The notes under the pieces were generated by a model that was not told the DNA's origin, ran no database searches, and saw nothing but the letters and a program-made list of their open reading frames with translations. Position numbers and translations under genes: made by a program. Positions 24,190 to 59,998 of a stretch of 60,585 bases of DNA are shown here, in pieces. Origin of the DNA: a virus (taxonomy: Duplodnaviria > Caudoviricetes); the IMG/VR virus record IMGVR_UViG_3300034110_000180, positions 1-60,585 of that record; one strand, 5' to 3'. Position 1 is the stretch's first letter; every line of letters starts with the position of its first letter.

Positions 24190-27100
24190 TTAGTTGGCGG
24201 CTACATCTTCGGCCAGCTTGCGCTGGTCCTTGCGGTACTGCACACCACCGACGGTGCGCTGCTCGCGCTGCGCTTGCTCCTGCGGTGCCTTCAGCAGGTC
24301 CGACACTGGCTGTGGCTTGAGGCCGTTGCGCTGGCGAGTCTGCTGCAGTTTAGTCCATGCTTCACGGGCTTCCTGCATGGAGGCGGTGTCCTTCTGGCGC
24401 ACTGCTTTGGCGTACTGGTTCTTGATGCTCTTGGTGCGATCTTGGAAGTTTTCCGTGATGTCGCGCATGCGGTTCTGACGCTCGTAGGTGACAGCCTGTT
24501 TTACAGACGGCACGCCCAGTCCAGTCATGATCGCTGACATCGCACTGATTTCGCTTTCAGGCAGGATCACGTCGCCGTTACGGCGAGTCATACCTTCCGT
24601 GGCCAAGCGGCCAGCCTTTAACGCATCCGACACGCCCTTAGGCATGATCTGCTCAATGCCTTTGTAGTAGTCGCCTTGGCCCATACGGATCAGACCGTCG
24701 GCCATCCGGGTGGTCATACCCAGAGAAGCGCCGCCCAACAATGTTCCAAACGCTTCGGCGCGACCGGCGGTAGTGCTCAGATCAGCATCACTGAACGGCA
24801 TGATGGACAGCATGTTGCCCGAGCCGATCTTGCCGGACAGGTCCACGCCAGCCAGCGTTGGAGCGCCGCGCATAATCATGTCAGCCCACTCAGGGCCGAT
24901 GGCTTTGCGCATGTCGGCAGTCAGGTCGTACGGCTCATCGTCGTCACCGAAGGCACCCAAGACAAACGCAATGGCCGCATACCCGGGCAGGCCCATCATG
25001 CCAGCAAACGCCGCAGTGTGGCCCAACGAGTAGGCCAGTGTCTTCATGGCCGCAGCACGCTCGTCTGGCTTGGTGAATGCATCACGAATCAGCTTGGCAT
25101 AGAACGCGATCTGGATCAACTGGAACTTGCGGAACTGCAGCGCGATCTTGCCCCACTGGGTGTTGAAGACTCGAGGAGCGTTGAACGCTGTGTAGTCGCC
25201 GTGCGTGTCCGTCAGGATGTCAGCAGCGTACTGGGTTGCTGCAGCTCTAGGGTCTGCAATTTTTGGGTCTTTTTTAGCCCGCTCAAACTCCAGACGGTAG
25301 GCGGCGATGGCTGTAGACAGTCGGTTGACCGCTTCAGTTTTCTGCACGGCCATGCGCATGCCCTTGTTCAGGCGCTGCGCGAACTTGCTGAGTTTGTTGT
25401 CGGCGTCGACCTTGTACTCGTTGATCTCAGTGGCCAGACCGATGTCGATCTTGCCTTGGTTGACCAAGTCGTTGATGGCCTTGCGCACGTCGGCAGGCAC
25501 CTTGGAGAAGTCAAACTGCTGGTCGATCAACTTCACGTCCTTGAACAGCGGGGCCAGATCAGTGTAGGCCTTGGCCATTTCCGACGCGGCCTTGGTGTAG
25601 TCATGGCGACCCGCCATGGCAGGCAGCGACATCATGAACGGCTGTGTCAAGTTCTGCAGGTAGTACGCAGGGCTGGAGGCCAAGAAGAACTTGGATGCCA
25701 GATTGGTCAGGCCACTGACCCACGTGTTTACCTTGACGTCCAGCGAGTCTGCGTAGCGCTGGGTCAGCTCGTTGAAGAGTTCCGACTTGCGCTCACGGTC
25801 ACCAGAGCGGGATTCATTGCGCATGTTCTGCAGCTGGTCTTGCACCAGTGGCTCGAACTGTACGTTGGCCATAAAGTTGGCGTCGGCTCGGCCTTGCTGT
25901 GTGAACGACTGGAGCATGTCCACTTCACCGGCGATACCACGGCGGCGCATCTCAGACTTGCGGGCGCTGCCCTCAGCCAATGCCTCCAAGTACAACTGGT
26001 TGATGATGGACAGCATCTTGCCAGCAGTGGGGTCAGCGCCAACCCGCTTGTCCACAGCAGCGCGCATATTGGTCAGCGCCGGCAGAAGCGCCTCGCCACT
26101 GAAAGCTTTTTCAAACGCTTCTGAGCGTGTAACAAGGTTCAGTTCGTCGAACGCGCCCTGCTCTTCCAGCCGGTCTTTCAGGCTGCGGGCTTCCCACTTG
26201 CTGTCAGCAAAGCTCACATGGTAGTGGTCCGGATCAGACTCGAGCGCCTTGACGCGCTTGGTGTCGTTGGCTTTTACGGCGGCCATGTACTCTTTGGACT
26301 TGCCGATCACGACGTGGGTTCCATTGCGCTTGATGGGCGCGTAGGGCATTCCCTCACGCAGACGGAACAGTGTCTGGAACCGCTTGAGCGAAGCTGCCTT
26401 CTCGGCCTTGAGGGCTGCCAAATTTTCTTTGGCTTTCTCCAAAGCTTCTTCGTCGGTGGTGACGTTGACTAAGGCTTGCGACTCTTTAATCATGGCGTCG
26501 TACTCGGACGTTGCCGCATCCAAGACAACCTTCTTCTTGTCGGCCAGCATCTTGTCGCCGTGGGCGAACACGTCCTTGATGAACTTCTGAGCCTTTGACT
26601 CTCGACCGCCGGGCAACGCCATGGCATCGAACGCAGCTCCCATCTTGGGATCGCGGTATTTGCCGTAGCCCCACTTGCCGGTGCGTGTGGACTCGAACAG
26701 GAAGTCGTTGACACTGCCACGGGCGGAGCCTTTGAACTGCTGCTCGATGTTGGCATAGCCGTCGGCGATCTTCTCGATCTCGCGCTCCAGCTCACTGACA
26801 CGGGAGGCCCGGCGGGCCAGCACGTCGGCAAACTTCTGAGCCGATGGCATACCAGCGGCCACTGCACGCTTGACCAAGTCACTGGTGAACACAGCGTAGT
26901 CCAGATACTTGCCACCCAGATCGCCGAGAGCGCCTACAGTGTTGCGGACCGGCTGCCGCAGCTGCTTGGGCAGCTTGCGTACATTGCTGTCGATCAGGCC
27001 TTTTCTTTGGCGACTGGCTCGAGAAACTGCGCCAACAGGCTGCGCCCCTTGCTGTCCAGCTTGAACTTGTCCTGACTGAGCACCTTGCTGGGCACCTTGG

Positions 27101-30100
27101 GTGGCTGCGTAGTTTGTGGCTTTGACTGCTGCATGTGCTTTCTCCATAAAAGCGTGTGTTGTGGGGAGGTTATCACGGAGGTAGTCCATGCCACCACCCA
27201 TGTTGGAAAAAGCCCACACCTGCGCGAAAACTTCCTCACGCAGCTCCTGAGCTGTCAAAGCTCGGTTGAGCTTGTCGGACATGTCCAGCGGGTAGTTGAG
27301 CAGGTAGCCCAACGCCGTTGTGTCGCTGTTGTCCTCGAAGTAAGTCAGCAGTTCGTCCGCGACCGACCCGGGGCGCATGGCCATGGGCTCACCGTTCACC
27401 TTGGACATCTTGAACTCTTTGTCACCAGAGAACTTGCCCAAGCCGCCTTGCACTTCGTCGATCCCATGGCCGGCTTCGTGGAGTGTGGCGATGGTAGACA
27501 GCTCTTTGTCCTTCAGGATCAGGCCGTTGTAGACGATGGTGCGCTTGCCATTCATCATGGTGTAGATCGCGTCCCACTTCACAGGCGAGAACGTAACCAT
27601 CCACGAGTCGATGGCGTCAACAGCGTTGCCCATACCAGACTTGCGCAGGCTACGGATACCAGCAGCAATGCCGTCAGAGTACCCGGACAGGTCTTCCAGC
27701 GAAGCCTCCACAGACTCGAAGTCAACGCCGTCTTGGTCGGTAGTGCGGACACTGCGACGCGACATACGGGTAAACCCTAACTCAGCTTTAACCAGCTTGG
27801 CCAGCTCGGTTTCAACATCGTTCTCGGTCCAGTTGTCCGGGCCGAACTCAATGAACGTCTTGCGCTGCGCGTCAGTCAGGTCCGCGAACTTGGGGGCTGC
27901 TGGGTACGTGCTGGCTACTTTGTCCCACGCTTCGGCTGCTTGCTCGGCTTGGGTGGGGATTTTGGTTGGGGCTTGGCTTTTTTCGGCAGGCTTTGGGGCA
28001 CGCCGTACTTGTCCGCCCACTCCTTGGCCAGCTTCGGCTTTTGGCTGAACAGGTACGCTTGCTGGGCTTTCGACTTGAACGGCATTGGTGTCTCCACGGC
28101 TTTGCAGCTCAGCAGTGATTTTGCCTGCGAGCTCTGTGTTTTTGATGGTGTCGCGCACGTAGGGCAGCAGCAGGCCCAAGTCTTCCGACGAGAGCTTGGT
28201 GATGTCCCGGCCAGCATCTTTCCAGCGCTGCTGGGCTTCTTTGACTGTGGCCGGTGCCTTGGACACTGGAGCAGCCTTGGGGGCGTCCTTCGCAGCCGCT
28301 TCGGCCATCAGAGTATCAAGCTTGGCGCTGAGCTCGTCGATGCGGGCTTGCACGGACTGCGCGGCCTCAACTACGCCAAGCTGAGTGAGTTCAGCTTTGG
28401 TCGCTTTCAGTTCATCAATGGCATCGGCCAGCTTGACAAATTTGACCGCCGTGTCGCTCCCTGCGGTGCTGGACTTTTGCCAGTACCTAGAGTCGTCAGC
28501 GTTTGCATCCACGTCACCTTCAGCGGTGTCGTCAACCGCCGCCTCAGCATCAACCTCCCCATCTACAGACTCTTGCGCCTGCGTGAGGTCAACAGCCCCT
28601 TCCGTGGTGGACTCGATGCCAAGCTCGGTGAACACCTGATTTCGGTCGAAGCCCATGGACACCGCGATGTCTGCAAGCTTTTCTGGGTTTCCGATCTGCC
28701 GAACACGGCTGCCCTTAATGCCAAACGCCGCGCCGACCTTTTCGCTTGTCTTGACTCTTTCCCCTTGGGCTGCCTTGCGTGCAAGAATATAGGCGCGCAA
28801 GATTTTGCGGTCGCGGTCTTTGTTTTTGCCCTTGCCGACTTGCTCTTCGATGATCGCGTCGAGGTCTTCCTTGGTAAATTCTTTCTGGTCTTGGCGCTTG
28901 CCAGCGGCGTCGGCCAGCGTAGCGTCCAGACCTGCGGTGTTACCGGTCTCACGGGCGATCTCAACGTAGTTCGCCAGCGCAGCGTCTTGATCCTCGACGG
29001 CTTCCTGCTTGCTCAGGCGCAGGGTCGTATTGGCCTTTACTGGGGCGGCATCGGTGATGGCGGCAGGCGTTTGTCCTTGCGGCGCTGTTTGGATGGTTTG
29101 AGGGGCTTGAGGGCCACTTGGTGCTCCGGTAGTTACAGTGGTAGATGGTTGGCCGGGGGCGACTGGAAGAACGCCAGCTTGTTGAAGTGCTCCTCCAGCG
29201 ACGGCGGGACTTCTGACCATTGTTCCTGTGACAGGAGCAGCTGGTCCTGCATCTCCCATGCCTCCCGGAACGACAGCGCCCCCGACTCCCACGCCTCCTG
29301 CAGGCTGCTGAACAGCTGGTATTCCTGTGCCACTTGCTGCCTCCTTAGATGCGTTGATCAACGCCTCGTCCATCAGTTCGAGGGCTTTGTTGTAGCGCTT
29401 TTCGGACATGTATTTTTCACCGGCAAAGTTCCACACAGGAACCATGACGGCTGACTTTGGGTCCACACCGCTTTCGGCCATTACATCAAACAGCTTGCGG
29501 CTAAAGCTGTTCGGGATTACCTTCAACTCATCACGGATGAAAACATCCTTGGGGTCGCGGGTAGTAGCTACACTAGCCATCACTTGGGCGGCGGCAGCGG
29601 TTTCTGCAGGCTTTTCCTGAGTCAAGTCCAGCGCAGCTTGTGAGCGCTGAAGAGCTTCGCCAACCGTCAGGGGGCGCTCGATACCTGTTTCTGGGTCGTT
29701 GACAAACTGGCCCGTTGGCTCGTCGTATGCAGCCTTGAATTGAGCTTCATAGTCTTTGGCTTTGCGCTTTGGACGGTTGACGCCCACGTTCTGGTTGATG
29801 AAGGTCTGCAGGCCAACGGTTTGGTCTTGCGTCACAAACTGACTATCCAGCGGGCGCTGCTCCGGGGGTGTCTGGTCTTCGGTAGCGGACGAGGTCAGGT
29901 CGCGCTCACGAGCGGAATCGCGGTAGCCTTGGCTACGACGCCAGCCCCCACCAACACCACCCAGTAGGCCGCCCAGCAGGCCGCCTCCGACAAACGACTC
30001 TGCATAATCGTCCATGGCTTGCGGGCTGAAAAGCTCTACCCGGGGGTCGATGGCCAGACGGCCAACATTGGATATGTACTCTTGGCCGACTTCACCGCCG

Positions 30101-30729
30101 GCTTCAGATATGCCAGTACGAGTGGCAGCTGCACCAGTGCGCGCAGCACCGCCAGTAAACCCGCCGAGATTGTCGAGGTATCGGTTGGCTGCTACCGCAG
30201 CACGTTCAGCCCGAAGGCCGGTTCCGGCCAGCTTGCCGACAACACCAGTCGCAGCTTCAACACCGCCGTAGGCCAAGCCAAGAGGGATCGCAGTGAGGTC
30301 TGTACGACCAGACTGCTCCCGTTGGGCCTGCATAATTTCACCGATACCGCTCAGACCTGCGACGCCATAAGCTGCGGCGGGCCCTGCAAGCAGACCAGCG
30401 CCAACAACAGGTGCCAGCTCAGGAAGTGTCTGAACACCAAGCTCAGCAGCGTAGCGGCCAACGTCGCCGACGCCGGAAATGTTTTTGTACGAGCCCACCG
30501 CATCTTGGTTGGTGTCGTAGTAGCGCTGGGAGGTGCGCTGGGCCTCAGCTTCCTGCTCCAGCCGGTAGTCCCGGGAAAGCCCCAAGGGCTCGAGCATGCC
30601 GTACGCCTTGGCCTGAAGGCGATCTACGGCGGACCCGCCCAATTCAGACAACCCAGCTTCAGGTGCTTCTACACGATACTGCTTGCTGTAGCGCGCTGCA
30701 ATTTCTTCGTCTGTCAGGCGGCGGGACAT
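24190..30729 (-). CDS. Giant internal virion / ejection protein (polyvalent-protein-like)
   Basis: 2179 aa at end of structural arm; HEAGH..EEVFA zincin-like motif; PYAPIKRNG resembles PLxRFG. Confidence 0.8.
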   Translation of the reverse strand: MSRRLTDEEIAARYSKQYRVEAPEAGLSELGGSAVDRLQAKAYGMLEPLGLSRDYRLEQEAEAQRTSQRYYDTNQDAVGSYKNISGVGDVGRYAAELGVQTLPELAPVVGAGLLAGPAAAYGVAGLSGIGEIMQAQREQSGRTDLTAIPLGLAYGGVEAATGVVGKLAGTGLRAERAAVAANRYLDNLGGFTGGAARTGAAATRTGISEAGGEVGQEYISNVGRLAIDPRVELFSPQAMDDYAESFVGGGLLGGLLGGVGGGWRRSQGYRDSARERDLTSSATEDQTPPEQRPLDSQFVTQDQTVGLQTFINQNVGVNRPKRKAKDYEAQFKAAYDEPTGQFVNDPETGIERPLTVGEALQRSQAALDLTQEKPAETAAAAQVMASVATTRDPKDVFIRDELKVIPNSFSRKLFDVMAESGVDPKSAVMVPVWNFAGEKYMSEKRYNKALELMDEALINASKEAASGTGIPAVQQPAGGVGVGGAVVPGGMGDAGPAAPVTGTMVRSPAVAGGALQQAGVLPVAPGQPSTTVTTGAPSGPQAPQTIQTAPQGQTPAAITDAAPVKANTTLRLSKQEAVEDQDAALANYVEIARETGNTAGLDATLADAAGKRQDQKEFTKEDLDAIIEEQVGKGKNKDRDRKILRAYILARKAAQGERVKTSEKVGAAFGIKGSRVRQIGNPEKLADIAVSMGFDRNQVFTELGIESTTEGAVDLTQAQESVDGEVDAEAAVDDTAEGDVDANADDSRYWQKSSTAGSDTAVKFVKLADAIDELKATKAELTQLGVVEAAQSVQARIDELSAKLDTLMAEAAAKDAPKAAPVSKAPATVKEAQQRWKDAGRDITKLSSEDLGLLLPYVRDTIKNTELAGKITAELQSRGDTNAVQVESPASVPVQPKAEAGQGVGGQVRRAPKPAEKSQAPTKIPTQAEQAAEAWDKVASTYPAAPKFADLTDAQRKTFIEFGPDNWTENDVETELAKLVKAELGFTRMSRRSVRTTDQDGVDFESVEASLEDLSGYSDGIAAGIRSLRKSGMGNAVDAIDSWMVTFSPVKWDAIYTMMNGKRTIVYNGLILKDKELSTIATLHEAGHGIDEVQGGLGKFSGDKEFKMSKVNGEPMAMRPGSVADELLTYFEDNSDTTALGYLLNYPLDMSDKLNRALTAQELREEVFAQVWAFSNMGGGMDYLRDNLPTTHAFMEKAHAAVKATNYAATQGAQQGAQSGQVQAGQQGAQPVGAVSRASRQRKGLIDSNVRKLPKQLRQPVRNTVGALGDLGGKYLDYAVFTSDLVKRAVAAGMPSAQKFADVLARRASRVSELEREIEKIADGYANIEQQFKGSARGSVNDFLFESTRTGKWGYGKYRDPKMGAAFDAMALPGGRESKAQKFIKDVFAHGDKMLADKKKVVLDAATSEYDAMIKESQALVNVTTDEEALEKAKENLAALKAEKAASLKRFQTLFRLREGMPYAPIKRNGTHVVIGKSKEYMAAVKANDTKRVKALESDPDHYHVSFADSKWEARSLKDRLEEQGAFDELNLVTRSEAFEKAFSGEALLPALTNMRAAVDKRVGADPTAGKMLSIINQLYLEALAEGSARKSEMRRRGIAGEVDMLQSFTQQGRADANFMANVQFEPLVQDQLQNMRNESRSGDRERKSELFNELTQRYADSLDVKVNTWVSGLTNLASKFFLASSPAYYLQNLTQPFMMSLPAMAGRHDYTKAASEMAKAYTDLAPLFKDVKLIDQQFDFSKVPADVRKAINDLVNQGKIDIGLATEINEYKVDADNKLSKFAQRLNKGMRMAVQKTEAVNRLSTAIAAYRLEFERAKKDPKIADPRAAATQYAADILTDTHGDYTAFNAPRVFNTQWGKIALQFRKFQLIQIAFYAKLIRDAFTKPDERAAAMKTLAYSLGHTAAFAGMMGLPGYAAIAFVLGAFGDDDEPYDLTADMRKAIGPEWADMIMRGAPTLAGVDLSGKIGSGNMLSIMPFSDADLSTTAGRAEAFGTLLGGASLGMTTRMADGLIRMGQGDYYKGIEQIMPKGVSDALKAGRLATEGMTRRNGDVILPESEISAMSAIMTGLGVPSVKQAVTYERQNRMRDITENFQDRTKSIKNQYAKAVRQKDTASMQEAREAWTKLQQTRQRNGLKPQPVSDLLKAPQEQAQREQRTVGGVQYRKDQRKLAEDVAAN
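26994..27134 (-). CDS. Nested +1-frame ORF, 46 aa (MQQSKPQ...)
   Basis: GGAG 7 nt before ATG; overlies a low-complexity stretch of the host ORF. Confidence 0.35.
   Translation of the reverse strand: MQQSKPQTTQPPKVPSKVLSQDKFKLDSKGRSLLAQFLEPVAKEKA
27915..28085 (-). CDS. Nested +1-frame ORF, 56-aa basic protein MPFKSKAQQAYLF...
   Basis: GGAG 6 nt before ATG; N-terminus resembles small phage proteins starting MPFKSxAQ (recall, unverified). Confidence 0.6.
   Translation of the reverse strand: MPFKSKAQQAYLFSQKPKLAKEWADKYGVPQSLPKKAKPQPKSPPKPSKQPKRGTK
29037..29117 (-). CDS. Nested +1-frame ORF, 26 aa (MALKPLKPSKQRRK...)
   Basis: GGAG 6 nt before GTG, just downstream of the previous nested ORF. 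Confidence 0.3.
   Translation of the reverse strand: MALKPLKPSKQRRKDKRLPPSPMPPQ
29133..29333 (-). CDS. Nested +1-frame ORF, 66-aa acidic protein
   Basis: TAAGGAGG 6 nt before GTG; protein-like composition. Confidence 0.55.
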   Translation of the reverse strand: MAQEYQLFSSLQEAWESGALSFREAWEMQDQLLLSQEQWSEVPPSLEEHFNKLAFFQSPPANHLPL

Positions 30730-53925: not shown

Positions 53926-54431
53926 TTGATCTCCTTGACTTCTGCGTCCAGTGTAACGGGTGTGAAGCCTTGCTGGTTGCTGAGACTGACCGACTGGCCA
54001 CCGCCCAAGTCAATGCTGATCGTGAACCCGGGCCCTGAGCTGACTGCCTTCTCTTCCTTGGGCTCGAGCCCGGCGGCCTTGATGAGCGTCTTCAGGATGT
54101 CGTGTTTCTGGTTCAGGCTCGCATCTGGGCTGGCAGCTTGGACGTACACCTGATCGAGCAGCTCACCGGCCATCCACGCCGCTTTCGCTTTGAACGTGAT
54201 GCCGTTTTTCTCGTACTCGGAGCGTTTGACCTGAACTTGCAGTTGGAACCACTTCTGGGACTCGAGCTCCTTGAACTGCTCGATGCTCAGGCCATGCCGG
54301 GCGGCCACAACTAGGTCATCTTCCATGCCAAGGGCAATGGATGCAACCATTTCATCGCTGATTTGCGGGAACGACAGGGTCTTTGGCTTGTACTCCAGAG
54401 GCGTATCGTCCATGTCGTCATCAAGACCCAT
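53922..54431 (-). CDS. terS: Putative terminase small subunit
   Basis: GTGA overlap with terL; GAGGAGG SD; FTISIDL C-terminal strand. Confidence 0.65.
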   Translation of the reverse strand: MGLDDDMDDTPLEYKPKTLSFPQISDEMVASIALGMEDDLVVAARHGLSIEQFKELESQKWFQLQVQVKRSEYEKNGITFKAKAAWMAGELLDQVYVQAASPDASLNQKHDILKTLIKAAGLEPKEEKAVSSGPGFTISIDLGGGQSVSLSNQQGFTPVTLDAEVKEIK

Positions 54432-54606
54432 GTTGAGCCTCCTCTTGTTGCATGTCGGACGTATGTTTTTTGGCTTTTTGGTACGCCAAATGGTACTTTT
54501 CCATGGCAATTCGGGTCATTTCAGCCGAGGAAACGCCCTTTTCTAAGGCCATAACACGGTATTTTTCGATCAAATCTTCCGGCAAAAACATGTTGCAGCG
54601 CTTCAT
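54421..54606 (-). CDS. Ribbon-helix-helix DNA-binding protein
   Basis: MKRCNMFLPEDL..GVSSAEMTRIAMEKY; AAGGA SD. Confidence 0.75.
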   Translation of the reverse strand: MKRCNMFLPEDLIEKYRVMALEKGVSSAEMTRIAMEKYHLAYQKAKKHTSDMQQEEAQHGS

Positions 54607-54770
54607 TTTTGGTCCTTTTCGGCGGTTTTTGGGGTGGTGTGTATGTGTATGGTAAGGCTTTTTTTGTTTTTTGGGGGAATTTTGAGGGGGTGGGGGCTTT
54701 GCGGCGTAAAGGTGTGTATACACACAGTTGTAATTCTTGTCGGGCTCGGCGGGAGCGTCGTAAGCATACC

Positions 54771-54807
54771 GGGGGCCGGGGGGTGGGGGTGGGGGGCCTG
54801 TGGGGGG
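54771..54807 (+). other. G-run cluster (five runs of 5-6 G) in a G/T-skewed tract
   Basis: GGGGGccGGGGGGtGGGGGtGGGGGGcctgtGGGGGG. Confidence 0.8.
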
Positions 54808-54812
54808 TGCCC

Positions 54813-54864
54813 GATTATCAAGGATGCCTAGGTTGTAGGGACTCTGGATTATCAAGGTTGCCTA
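54813..54864 (+). repeat. 18-bp direct repeat GATTATCAAGG(A/T)TGCCTA x2
   Basis: 54813-54830 and 54847-54864. Confidence 0.9.
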
Positions 54865-54867
54865 CAG

Positions 54868-55462
54868 TAGAGCGATGATCGCATCGTCTCACCCCGCTAA
54901 GTGCAAGCGACTTGTGCCGGTATCAATCACATGACGTAAGTCATCGTGGCTATGCTGGGCAACACGGGCCAAGTGCATGGGGAAAGTGTCCTTTAAAAAT
55001 CTGCAATCAGGTGTCAGTATGGTGCGGTGACAGCGCCCTGAAATTGACCTGACCTAAGTTCACCGGGTAAGTGTGGGCTGACAAGCATCCGGGGGCATAG
55101 TCTCACGGCCAAGCCAAGATACTGCACTGGGGTATCTGTACGGCACTGCGGTATCTGTCGGGGTAAGAGTCCCTGCAGGTAGGGCGGTAGCGGAAAGACG
55201 CTACACGGGCAAAGTGTTCGCCGTAAAGGGACACGAGGGTATCAACGTCACCCGGTACAGAAAGACGAGAAAGCCACCCCACGAAACAAAAGCAAAAAGC
55301 TGGCCTAACCACCGACATACGGAGTGGAGGGTGCGCGAACACGGGCAGGTTACGTCACAACGTAGCGAAATCCCCTAGTAGGCTATACGGTTTTGCCAAA
55401 CCAAAACGTGGGGTGGGCTTTTGAGAGCGCATTGCATGGTGTAGTGCGTTCTTTCAAGCTCA
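54868..55462 (+). ncRNA. Candidate large structured RNA / early leader
   Basis: No credible ORF; many hairpins with G-U pairs, GNRA loops and long-range stems. Confidence 0.55.
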
Positions 55463-55491
55463 TTCAATCATTCAACCTCGAAGGAATAATC

Positions 55492-55941
55492 ATGTCCAAC
55501 CAAATCGCAGTCCAAGAAATGCAAGTGTCGATCTATAACAACGCCGCCAATGGCGGCACGGTCACAATGAATGCCAAGGGTAAGTCCGGCTCGTTTGCCC
55601 GTGCCATTGCGTTTGCGAGTCGTGAAGCCCGTCAAAACCTCTCAGCAGGCATGATGCTCAGCCAACTGCAAAACGGCCAGTATCGCCCTCTCGTTGCCGA
55701 CATTCTTTCGTGTGGCCTGATTCCCAAAGCCAACTTGGATTGGGTGTCTGCTTCCATCCCTGCAACTGGCCCCGTGAACAAAGAGGCATTGATCGGTCTG
55801 TGCAAGCAAGTCAAGACCGTGTACGACAACAAGCGCACAAAGAACGGCGACCCCGTGGTGCTCAAGGGTGAGAAGGCTTTCGTCATGGGTTTCGTCCAAG
55901 CCATCGTGGCTGATGTGGCCGAGGTCACCATTGACGCTTGA
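55492..55941 (+). CDS. First early gene, hypothetical
   Basis: AAGGA SD before ATG 55492. Confidence 0.8.
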   Translation: MSNQIAVQEMQVSIYNNAANGGTVTMNAKGKSGSFARAIAFASREARQNLSAGMMLSQLQNGQYRPLVADILSCGLIPKANLDWVSASIPATGPVNKEALIGLCKQVKTVYDNKRTKNGDPVVLKGEKAFVMGFVQAIVADVAEVTIDA

Positions 55942-55957
55942 TGTTTCGTCCCCTCTG

Positions 55958-55977
55958 CTCCCTGCGTACGCAGGGAG
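55958..55977. repeat. Perfect 20-bp palindrome CTCCCTGCGTACGCAGGGAG
   Basis: Self-complementary; followed by AGCATGCT-TTTT. Confidence 0.85.
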
Positions 55978-56020
55978 TGTAGCATGCTTTTTGCCCATGT
56001 CAAGCGTGTGTATGTGTAGG

Positions 56021-56390
56021 TTTTCATAAAATCCAAGGGTTTTGGGCTGGATAGTAGGTTTGGATTTCAAGAAACCCATTAACCATGCGTGTTATATAGA
56101 TGAAGTCATCCAATTATCCAGAAAGACAATGTTTTTAGAGTTTTCGTATATGGAAAAGGGAGAGGGGGGTCGAGGGTCTTGGGGCTACCCCCTCTACCCC
56201 TAAAGTTTCCGCACCCCCTTTTCCAGACTTGGATTATTCGATTAGGGTAAACCCTAACATCGCTGAAACCCGCATGGTTACTGGCTTCCAGAGCATACAC
56301 ACCTAAATTCCTGCTATCCAAGCATGAAATCCAAACGCTCAACATGAGCACAGACACCCACGAATTCCTAAAATCCAAGGGAAAAAGTGC
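56021..56390. other. Candidate replication origin
   Basis: AT-rich and non-coding; about 11 WTCCAR boxes plus direct and inverted repeats. Confidence 0.45.
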
Positions 56391-56410
56391 AGAAAAACCA
56401 CACTTGCGGG

Positions 56411-56449
56411 TATACTTTATGTATACGCTGACTATACTTCATGTATAAT
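56411..56449 (+). promoter_or_regulatory. Two TATAC-N5-GTATA palindromic operators overlapping a TATAAT -10 box
   Basis: 56411-56425 and 56433-56447; TATAAT at 56444. Confidence 0.6.
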
Positions 56450-56499
56450 TCAAGTGTGTTCAAAACACACTCCGTAACTACTCCCTGATAGGACCAAAG

Positions 56500-57003
56500 A
56501 TGAAATACGTGAACCTCCGCCTCCAAGATGACGAGCATGCCCGAATGGTTGCTATGGCTGAGTCCAAGTTTATGCCTGTGACTTCCATGCTCCGCATGCT
56601 GTTCGCCGACCATGAGGCCAAATCAAGGGCGCAGCACTCATCCGCGCCAGCCCCCAAGATGAACAAGCGAGACCAAGCTTTCGCCGAGTACCACAACCTC
56701 ATGGCCAATTTGCCAGCACAGTGGACGAAGGAGCTGTTTGACTCAACACGCAAAGCCATCAATGACTTGCGAACCCAAGGCGGCAACATCCACCACACAG
56801 ATATGCCACTGCCTGAGTCCATGGTCAAGTGGAACAACGCACAGCACCCCAATGCGGCAGACCCCAAGTATGCGAGCTGGTCAATTGAACAACTCAGAGC
56901 AGAGGTGGATGCTACCGGCAACTCAAGCGCTCAGGCATACCTGACCTTTAAACTTCAACGAGCGGCAGGTGACCTGCAAGACCTCGATTTCCCGGAGGAC
57001 TGA
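56500..57003 (+). CDS. RHH-domain regulator, paralog 1
   Basis: MKYVNLRLQDDEHARM. Confidence 0.8.
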   Translation: MKYVNLRLQDDEHARMVAMAESKFMPVTSMLRMLFADHEAKSRAQHSSAPAPKMNKRDQAFAEYHNLMANLPAQWTKELFDSTRKAINDLRTQGGNIHHTDMPLPESMVKWNNAQHPNAADPKYASWSIEQLRAEVDATGNSSAQAYLTFKLQRAAGDLQDLDFPED

Positions 57004-57357
57004 ATGGCCATGAAAACCTTCACACTTCGCCTGCCAGATGACGACCACGCACGACTGATGGCAGCAGCTAGCGCCGCAGGGCTGTCGATGGGTAGCTACC
57101 TGATTAAGCTGCTCGATGCAGACACAGGGCACACACGACCTCTCAAGCCAACGAAGGTTGGCCGCAGAGAGCTGGCCTTCGCCAAATACAACGAGCTCAT
57201 GGCAAACATCCCACCGAAGGACACATGGACTACGCAGATGTTTGTTGACCTGTGCTATCAGATACGACTGCTCAGGTACAGCGGGGGTCAGATACCGCTG
57301 GCCGAGATGCCATACCCTGAAGAGTTTCAGGAATGGTACAGGCTACCACCCACATAA
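57004..57357 (+). CDS. RHH-domain regulator, paralog 2
   Basis: MKTFTLRLPDDDHARL; GGAGG SD. Confidence 0.8.
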   Translation: MAMKTFTLRLPDDDHARLMAAASAAGLSMGSYLIKLLDADTGHTRPLKPTKVGRRELAFAKYNELMANIPPKDTWTTQMFVDLCYQIRLLRYSGGQIPLAEMPYPEEFQEWYRLPPT

Positions 57358-57417: not shown

Positions 57418-57594
57418 ATGGCACATACACACCAACATCTCATATACACACCTCGTGATGAGCGCATGGATTTCATGGGCGACGACGAGCCCTTTGTCTT
57501 TGAGACTCATACACATACACACGTCAATCCCTTCGAGTCCGATGACCCAGAGGTGGCCTATCACGAATACTTGGCCGAACGATTCAGCCGGTAA
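57418..57594 (+). CDS. 58-aa acidic His-rich protein (not in ORF track)
   Basis: AAGGAG SD; MAHTHQH..EYLAERFSR. Confidence 0.65.
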   Translation: MAHTHQHLIYTPRDERMDFMGDDEPFVFETHTHTHVNPFESDDPEVAYHEYLAERFSR

Positions 57595-59729: not shown

Positions 59730-59998
59730 CCATACAAAAGCAACCATTCCTGTTGGCTGACAACCTCGTTGTTGTGGCCACGCAGATGAAATCAGCAAGC
59801 GTCCTACCCGGCGGAAACAGGAACCCAGTCGCTCCAAGTCTATTCATCATGCTTGGGGGTACTGAGCCTGATCATGGAGTTCAAGCCATACCCCCATGCA
59901 GTATGTATGTGTACGGGGAGAAAGCCATCGAGGAACTGCAAGCAGCGTGTGCCTTCGCACTACTGCCGAAGGTCGTTAACAAACTGGAGGGAGCATGA
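59726..59998 (+). CDS. Small early protein, tail NKLEGA
   Basis: GGAGG SD, ATGA overlap. Confidence 0.75.
   Translation: MTIQKQPFLLADNLVVVATQMKSASVLPGGNRNPVAPSLFIMLGGTEPDHGVQAIPPCSMYVYGEKAIEELQAACAFALLPKVVNKLEGA

Follow-up and report, generated by a model that had tools for sequence, protein, structure and literature searches.

What is encoded in the long gap that separates the two gene arms of this virus? The window, meaning the whole stretch of DNA that was analysed, is an entire virus record (60,585 nt) whose completeness is rated at 100% and in which no end repeats were found. Its genes diverge from a gap of 880 nt (54613-55491). On the - strand, they run from 54612, where an RHH gene starts, down to about 24190, and encode an RHH-like protein, a 195-aa putative terS (named by position only, and without a PHROG or Pfam match), TerL, an SU10-like portal, adaptors and a 2179-aa protein. 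The best cultured relatives of the TerL are at most 40% identical to it. On the + strand, genes run from g1, whose ATG lies at 55492, and wrap round to about 24000; this arm carries a family A DNA polymerase, an SNF2 helicase and a DUF927 primase.

An earlier reading of the letters alone, the original prediction, proposed that the gap holds a large structured RNA, either a new noncoding RNA or an antitermination leader for the + strand arm. The parts into which the locus can be divided are listed here.

54813..54880 (+): tandem repeat of about 34 nt directly 5' of the RNA, with cores GATTATCAAGGWTGCCTA at 54813-54830 and 54847-54864
54870..54890 (+): 5' hairpin P1, GAGCGAUG-AUCG-CAUCGUCUC, missed by the original prediction
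54892..54986 (+): 5' domain, a long irregular hairpin CCCC...GGGG with AUGAC-GUAA-GUCAU at 54931-54944 (RNAalifold, window and four relatives)
54992..55000 (+): single-stranded junction UUUAAAAAU, near-invariant across subgroups (family consensus YWUUAAAAAUY)
55001..55158 (+): central variable domain, whose length and sequence vary among subgroups, including the hairpin AGAUAC/GUAUCU at 55117-55137
55159..55271 (+): conserved 3' domain of 113 nt, the best-conserved part, with covariation and the match to covariance model R1
55160-55174 (+): hairpin Pa, within the 3' domain
55187-55204 (+): hairpin Pb, loop GAAAGA, within the 3' domain
about 55206-55234 (+): pseudoknot 1, with the pairings of the window subgroup drawn by eye
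GGGU 55237-55240/ACCC 55250-55253 (+): pseudoknot 2, crossing helix Pe (CGUC 55246-55249/GACG 55264-55267), with an A-rich loop
55274..55416 (+): terminal hairpin, a 10-bp stem CCACCCCACG/CGUGGGGUGG round a window-specific insert of 123 nt (55284-55406)
55425..55451 (+): second tail hairpin, GAGCGCAUUGCA-UGG-UGUAGUGCGUUC; its positional counterpart in relatives covaries
55454..55491 (+): conserved CAAGCUCAUUCAA, then ribosome-binding site GAAGGA at 55480-55485, just 5' of the g1 start codon
55492..55941 (+): g1, a gene of 149 aa that opens the + strand arm, without a PHROG or Pfam match

Coding Potential and Folding Energy

The gap holds short overlapping ORFs only, and the view that 54868-55455 (+) contains no credible ORF stands. 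Any reading frame in it would be broken by the 1-nt insertions and deletions that separate close relatives.

Folding energies can be expressed as z-scores against dinucleotide shuffles. As had been anticipated, the + strand of 54868-55462 folds better than its shuffles (-224.9 kcal/mol, z -2.99, 1 of 100 shuffles as good), in contrast to the - strand (z -0.19, 37 of 100 as good). This energy signal comes largely from the 3' end, 55272-55455, where z reaches -4.17 and none of 200 shuffles does as well. The nested-fold signal of the conserved core, 54868-55272, is weak, with z only -1.77 on the + strand and -0.96 on the - strand. Energy alone is therefore weak evidence, and it is the comparison of relatives that decides.

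Relatives of the Element

A search of viral contigs with the putative terS yielded 59 related loci. In related phage contigs the position of the homologues is constant: they lie between the divergent RHH/putative-terS/TerL block and the first + strand gene. When the gap is compared with these loci by blastn, 54712-54887 proves widely conserved, and the body (54892-55267) finds L011 and L023 only, at about 80% identity, with L030 and L032 matching in part. Profile searches then placed the family in many more loci. Where at least 900 nt of flank is available, the RNA is present in 25 of 38 related loci; the other 13 carry different leaders, so the RNA is not essential to the genome design.

Pattern scans extended the set. 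A viral scan gave 11 matches and 2 new loci, and 13 of 61 matches in metagenomes were true members. In prokaryote genomes, where members bearing the motif are the ones detectable, nhmmer confirmed none of 35 pattern matches, and neither a prophage copy nor a clue to the host was found. GenBank phage DNA, queried with the window region and with a relative of the majority type, gave no match. The pooled set comprises 33 non-redundant sequences, two of which (L032 and L066) share the 5' half only.

The covariance model R1 was built from four nested helices of the 3' domain only. Over 77 sources it gave 44 matches, 30 of them distinct, including three loci absent from its seed (L051-L053). In the window it has exactly one match, at 55159-55271 (+), with 57.6 bits and an E-value of 3.4e-13. 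Global RNAalifold on all 30 sequences returned almost no structure; since the body is too variable for global alignment, the RNAs were analysed domain by domain.

Twenty-four sequencing runs are listed as containing all or some of the stretch. All are DNA runs, from lake-water, freshwater or unspecified metagenomes, and one is probably its source. The carriers are a clade of uncultured freshwater podophage-like lake viruses.

A Conserved Domain with Two Pseudoknots

The 3' domain consists of two hairpins followed by two consecutive H-type pseudoknots. On a MAFFT alignment of 27 sequences (699 cells), 86.6% of the cells are standard pairs, against 30-38% when the partners are slid by 1-3 columns. 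Compensatory changes occur at 18 of the 26 pairs, and the covariation score of 0.427, compared with 0.166 +/- 0.013 in shuffles, is reached by none of 500 shuffles. On the model-based alignment (769 cells), which leans towards the four modelled helices, 92.3% of the cells are paired against 32-39% when slid, and compensatory changes, the covariation that the original prediction called for, are found at 23 of 26 pairs. Several pairs show four standard types, for instance GC 11, CG 9, AU 4 and UA 4. Such cell counts overstate the number of independent events, since the sequences are phylogenetically clustered, perhaps into eight subgroups.

In an H-type pseudoknot, the loop of a first stem pairs with a downstream segment. 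Such pairing is found here, and both stems are kept by compensatory change. Helices 3 and 5 of the pseudoknots were left out of R1, so the model-based alignment is not fitted to either of them. On that alignment, helices 3 and 4 of pseudoknot 1 are 95.7% and 93.3% paired, with 3 of 4 pairs compensatory in each. For helices 5 and 6 of pseudoknot 2 the values are 100% and 91.0%, with 2 of 3 pairs compensatory in helix 5 and 5 of 5 in helix 6. The loop of helix Pe supplies the partner of a GGU-type stem in pseudoknot 2, and the A-rich loop that is left reads ACCAAGAACAGCAA in most members. The window subgroup spells pseudoknot 1 with other letters (GGC/GCC, GUGU/ACAC) and leaves its topology, judged by eye, unchanged; L051-L053 retain it with changes. 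The loops of the pseudoknots are near-invariant.

The 5' Hairpin and the Body

All 8 pairs of P1 persist in each of 13 sequences, and 3 of these pairs show compensatory changes. The body between P1 and the 3' domain (54892-55158) can be resolved in the five-sequence subgroup of the window only, where 25 of 122 predicted pairs are compensatory; the layout of the 5' domain differs in other subgroups. Within the body, a near-invariant single-stranded UUAAAAAU occupies 54993-55000, and this junction recurs in one type of alternative leader (class C, below).

Whole stems are swapped between relatives. ATGAC/GTCAT is replaced by ATGGT/ACCAT, GTAGCG/CGCTAC by CACAAGG/CCTTGTG and, in L011 and L023, AGATAC/GTATCT by AACGC/GCGTT. 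These three stems (54931-54944 with loop GTAA, 55187-55204 and 55117-55122/55132-55137, respectively) are among ten helices listed in the original prediction, and the compensatory changes in relatives uphold them. For two more of the ten, CCACCCCACG/CGTGGGGTGG and the 3' hairpin at 55425-55451, support comes from relatives, in which a covarying hairpin occupies the same position; for the former this is CCCAC-GCAA-GTGGG and variants of it, seen by eye. A further helix, GTGCAAG/CTTGTGC, is compatible with the relatives, but RNAalifold favours a long-range alternative. GTTACG/CGTAGC falls inside the insert found only in the window, and GCT-GACA-AGC has 3 bp only. The remaining two fail: TCTGTAC/GTACAGA has two mismatches in L011 and takes as its 3' arm the conserved loop of a pseudoknot, and GTCCCT/AGGGAC conflicts with hairpin Pa and pseudoknot 1. 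Absent from that list were the hairpin at 54870-54890 and both pseudoknots.

Strand of the RNA

The tested helices hold 64 G-U cells against 13 A-C cells, as expected from the G-U excess on the + strand that had been noticed in the window. By part, the counts are 30 against 13 in the 3' domain, 13 against 0 in P1 and 21 against 0 in the tail hairpin. This excess, the asymmetry of folding between the strands and the orientation of the GNRA-type loops together assign the RNA to the + strand.

A DNA-level element could also be imagined here: a replication origin, a packaging site, or hairpins of single-stranded DNA. The structure sits in a divergent intergenic region beside putative terminase genes, and repeats, a G-rich tract (54771-54809) and palindromes lie nearby. 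The G-U excess makes such an element unlikely, being strand-specific and therefore meaningless for duplex DNA. Against it, too, are the pseudoknots preserved by compensatory changes and the different fold z-scores of the two strands, and the repeats and G-tract are found upstream of the structured part, not inside it. Altogether a DNA-level function is very unlikely, and a conserved RNA structure on the + strand is very probably real.

Comparison with Known RNAs

A strong match in Rfam would have removed any novelty. At gathering scores, Rfam 15 matches nothing anywhere in the window; with E relaxed to 10, the sole match in 54500-55600 is to a model of a vertebrate lncRNA, on the - strand and with 11.2 bits, and can be put down to chance. 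Among the titles and abstracts listed by literature searches on large structured phage RNAs, none describes this element. Strong covariation, one constant genomic position in related phages and the lack of an Rfam match at E up to 10 support the first of the two original proposals, a new large noncoding RNA. From this comparison of sequences, 54868-55455 (+) is predicted to encode a member of an undescribed family of large, structured, pseudoknotted RNAs.

Two kinds of RNA were considered and set aside. HDV-like ribozymes contain a nested double pseudoknot; the pseudoknots of the leader are consecutive, not nested, and no Rfam ribozyme matches. A tmRNA combines a tRNA-like domain with a tag reading frame, and none was found by ARAGORN.

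The packaging RNA of phi29 (pRNA) offers a partial likeness, being a phage noncoding RNA beside packaging genes, near the early promoter region, with pseudoknot-type interactions. The leader RNA differs in having no Rfam match, in lying on the strand opposite the packaging genes and in being joined to an early gene. The genome of phi29 is protein-primed, and the phage of the window differs from it in having a classical TerL.

GOLLD and ROOL are large ornate RNAs, often borne by phages or prophages, where they frequently neighbour tRNA genes. ARAGORN detects no tRNA or tmRNA gene in the 60.6-kb window, so this tRNA neighbourhood is absent here. The leader RNA further differs from GOLLD and ROOL in that it matches no Rfam model, theirs included, at E up to 10, and in that it holds a fixed place heading an early transcription unit, where relatives substitute other leaders. 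It resembles them in being a large (>400 nt), multi-domain, pseudoknotted phage noncoding RNA from environmental (lake) sequence, with no assigned function. A cryo-EM study of such RNAs is given in 10.1101/2024.12.08.627333.

A catalogue of candidate structured RNAs from IMG/VR (Fremin et al. 2023, PMC10690425) draws on the same data source and rests on evidence of a like kind, namely covariation in viral intergenic regions. Its entries are 29-151 nt long, so none can equal the whole leader RNA. The motifs of the family were not found in the six supplementary files of PMC10690425 that were searched. It is possible that single hairpins of the leader are among the unnamed entries of that catalogue.

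The Upstream Repeats

The core of the tandem repeat, GATTATCAAGGWTGCCTA, has two matches only in 60.6 kb when up to 3 mismatches are allowed, and none of 100 shuffles reaches two. Relatives carry a tandem pair of several sequence types, always just before P1, which starts a few nt after the second repeat. This arrangement suggests that the repeats serve as a promoter or as a protein-binding or control module. A link between the type of repeat and the identity of the RHH protein or of the putative terS was looked for, and none was seen. Sigma-54 and T7-like promoters were dropped by eye, since spacing or sequence did not fit and Pfam finds no T7-type RNA polymerase.

Other motifs occur in the same region. 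The motif GTGTGTATRYRYA is present in 8 copies against 0.8 expected, mostly in gaps of the early region (54637-54649, 54712-54725, 56006-56018, 57420-57432, 57510-57522, 59901-59913 and 1312-1324). The copy at 54712 is palindromic as GTGTGTATACACAC, and relatives, too, keep the motif beside the RHH gene. Its probable role is that of an operator for an RHH-type regulator, for which the candidate genes are 54424-54612 (-), 56500-57000 (+) and 57004-57354 (+). The ORF at 56500 is RHH-like by eye only and has no Pfam match. Just 5' of the tandem repeats, a G-rich tract on the + strand (54771-54809; GGGGGGCCTGTGGGGGGTG and neighbouring runs) is conserved in relatives. It might form a quadruplex, or serve as a promoter element or packaging signal.

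The Tail and the First Gene

The RNA ends in two hairpins. At the position of the terminal hairpin, relatives have a short hairpin of the CCCAC-GCAA-GUGGG type followed by CUUCA; variants seen by eye in this first tail hairpin are CCCAC/GUGGG, CCCUC/GAGGG, CCCCUG/CAGGGG and GCCCU/AGGGC. The insert that the window carries there (55284-55406) has no blastn match among the related loci fetched, and is very stable when folded with the second tail hairpin (z -4.17). The second hairpin has 9 pairs in relatives, 5 of them compensatory. Together with the CAAGCUCAUUCAA-ribosome-binding-site segment, the tail hairpins are conserved up to the start codon, whatever first gene follows. Homologues of g1 are found 3' of the leader in 9 of the terS loci, and in 6 loci found using g1 as the query.

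A scan of the + strand from 54400 to 55500 detected nothing like a sigma-70 promoter, and called no canonical terminator between the RNA and g1. In the window, the tail hairpins are followed by UUUU and UUCUUUC; most relatives have no U-tract there (CUUCAGUGUG).

The most likely reading, to which an even chance can be given, is that the element is a co-transcribed, cis-acting 5' leader of g1. It is favoured because the conserved tail runs straight into the ribosome-binding site regardless of the gene that follows, and it is backed by two further points: the RNA is separated from g1 by neither a canonical terminator nor a sigma-70-like promoter, and P1 always begins a few nt after the second repeat. 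The first early transcript would open with this RNA as its 5' leader, starting right after the tandem 34-nt repeat and running through the tail hairpins into the g1 ribosome-binding site. The RNA may then act in cis on that transcript, by controlling elongation or termination at the tail hairpins, or by protecting or processing early mRNA.

The same tail can be read as part of a sensor. A riboswitch has a ligand-binding aptamer whose pairings are mutually exclusive with those of an expression platform. The 3' pseudoknot domain would bind a ligand or protein and thereby set termination at the tail hairpins or the masking of g1 translation. Indeed, the pseudoknot domain lies directly 5' of the conserved hairpin and ribosome-binding-site segment, and this downstream segment is common to leaders with different bodies, which resembles different sensors mounted on one expression platform. 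However, no Rfam riboswitch matches, and inspection by eye did not reveal a conserved alternative in which the 3' domain pairs with the tail; Pb resembles the terminal hairpin in some subgroups, but not in the window or in L056. More than 400 nt also far exceeds known aptamers, and g1, to which no function is assigned, points to no ligand. A riboswitch-like sensor is thus a weaker rival, and quite unlikely.

Antitermination and the Polymerase

A leader acting in cis recalls put of phage HK022, a cis-acting antiterminator leader RNA of about 70 nt with two stem-loops. In both cases a structured RNA stands at the very start of an early transcript in a phage without a recognised RNA polymerase of its own, and the leader RNA could act in cis on the polymerase that makes it. 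Its place at the head of the + arm fits; no sigma-70-like promoter is seen there, and the tandem repeats may take that part. In size and build it differs from put, having about 405-590 nt (about 405 in the conserved element), several domains and two pseudoknots. Nor are terminators clearly enriched 3' of it.

This last point leaves unsupported the second of the two original proposals, an antitermination leader for a 29-kb arm with internal terminators. By a simple and crude scan, there is 1 terminator-like site on the + strand in 25.2 kb of the arm, and the totals of such sites differ from those in shuffles by no more than about 2 sd (17 against 20.6 +/- 4.5, and 10 against 5.9 +/- 2.1). With so few sites in the early arm, antitermination appears to lack its premise, and put-like processive antitermination in particular is rather improbable.

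Directly after g1 comes a second noncoding gap of about 550 nt (55942-56499), with a perfect palindromic hairpin at 55958-55977 and several direct and inverted TTCATAAAATCCAAGGG-like words. From its sequence, this gap looks like a terminator together with a regulatory region. If so, g1 and the leader may form a unit separate from the rest of the + arm, and the RNA need not head the whole arm.

The phage had also been said to have no RNA polymerase. This part holds for recognisable domains: Pfam finds no RNA polymerase domain in 43 of 81 candidate ORFs, which include all the long ones. Two virion proteins of 2179 and 956 aa are unassigned, and a virion RNA polymerase might be among them. In the 2179-aa protein (24190-30729, - strand) of the structural arm, only the C-terminal 750 or so residues match PHROGs; these are groups of giant virion proteins, and one carries the label DarB-like. 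The protein has no Pfam match and no PDB sequence match, N4-like or other virion RNA polymerases having been sought. It is possibly an ejected enzyme, for example a virion RNA polymerase.

Alternative Leaders

Relatives without the window's RNA (class A) carry other leaders in its place. One type, class B, is an unrelated noncoding leader of about 370-450 nt, found in L003 (1819-2254, - strand of the locus) and also in L005, L024, L025, L028, L029 and L055. It has the same tandem repeats 5' and a different first gene 3', and shares with the window family only the tail hairpins and the CAAAGCUCAAUCAACC-ribosome-binding-site segment. RNAalifold predicts 97 pairs in it, 24 of them compensatory. 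Just 5' of its terminal hairpin, an H-type pseudoknot can be drawn by eye, with AGCGCC/GGCGCU and with CCGGG/CCCGG, UAGGG/CCCUA or CCGAG/CUCGG.

A third and shorter type, class C, is found in L032, L066, L045, L046, L047 and L049. Its 5' part, up to UUAAAAAUU, is common with the window family, and its 3' part is different (GGGUGAAGUAAC ... CACCUAACCC ... GGUSUAAAC) and runs directly into a g1-like gene. L039 has the class C 3' part with a diverged junction (UUUAACAAUU). Taken together, the leaders look modular.

This replacement bears on another explanation, that the element is a free-standing, trans-acting noncoding RNA, ended or processed at the tail hairpins, which acts on a partner of the host or of the phage. 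It might be a decoy for host takeover or anti-defence, or form RNA-protein or RNA-only assemblies as other large phage-associated RNAs do. Behind the same repeats, relatives exchange its body for structured leaders unrelated to it, as would be expected of cargo in an arms race, and the element stands at the very start of the early region. A size of more than 400 nt, a fold of several domains and two covarying pseudoknots whose loops hardly vary are features typical of RNAs with a specific binding partner, and the two GC-rich hairpins that close it, with the U-runs that follow in the window, could end a free-standing RNA. On the other hand, the tail hairpins of most relatives have no U-tract (CUUCAGUGUG), the scan calls no terminator at the tail, and there is no promoter for g1 downstream of the RNA. 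A trans-acting RNA is a serious rival to the cis-acting leader, and may be called possible though doubtful.

Significance of a Proposed Leader RNA Family

To our knowledge, structured RNAs of more than 400 nt with covariation-supported tertiary pairings are rare, and each class of them has brought either new biochemistry or an open puzzle. The setting of this one is unusually clear: it has a constant place heading the early region in a clade of phages and a well-defined double-pseudoknot core, and it is replaced by other structured leaders in relatives.

Tentatively, the leaders can be seen as functional cargo, with at least three unrelated, large, pseudoknotted RNAs (classes A, B and C) being interchangeable between the same repeats and the same tail and ribosome-binding-site segment. 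With similar reserve, such cargo might consist of RNA-only devices for host takeover or anti-defence, or of modifiers of the polymerase, delivered as the first product on infection. If true, the leaders would amount to a new functional class among large phage RNAs. Given a host or an in vitro system, the clear setting makes the leader RNA directly testable. It also hints that, in these phages, an early function in infection may be performed by RNA, not by protein.
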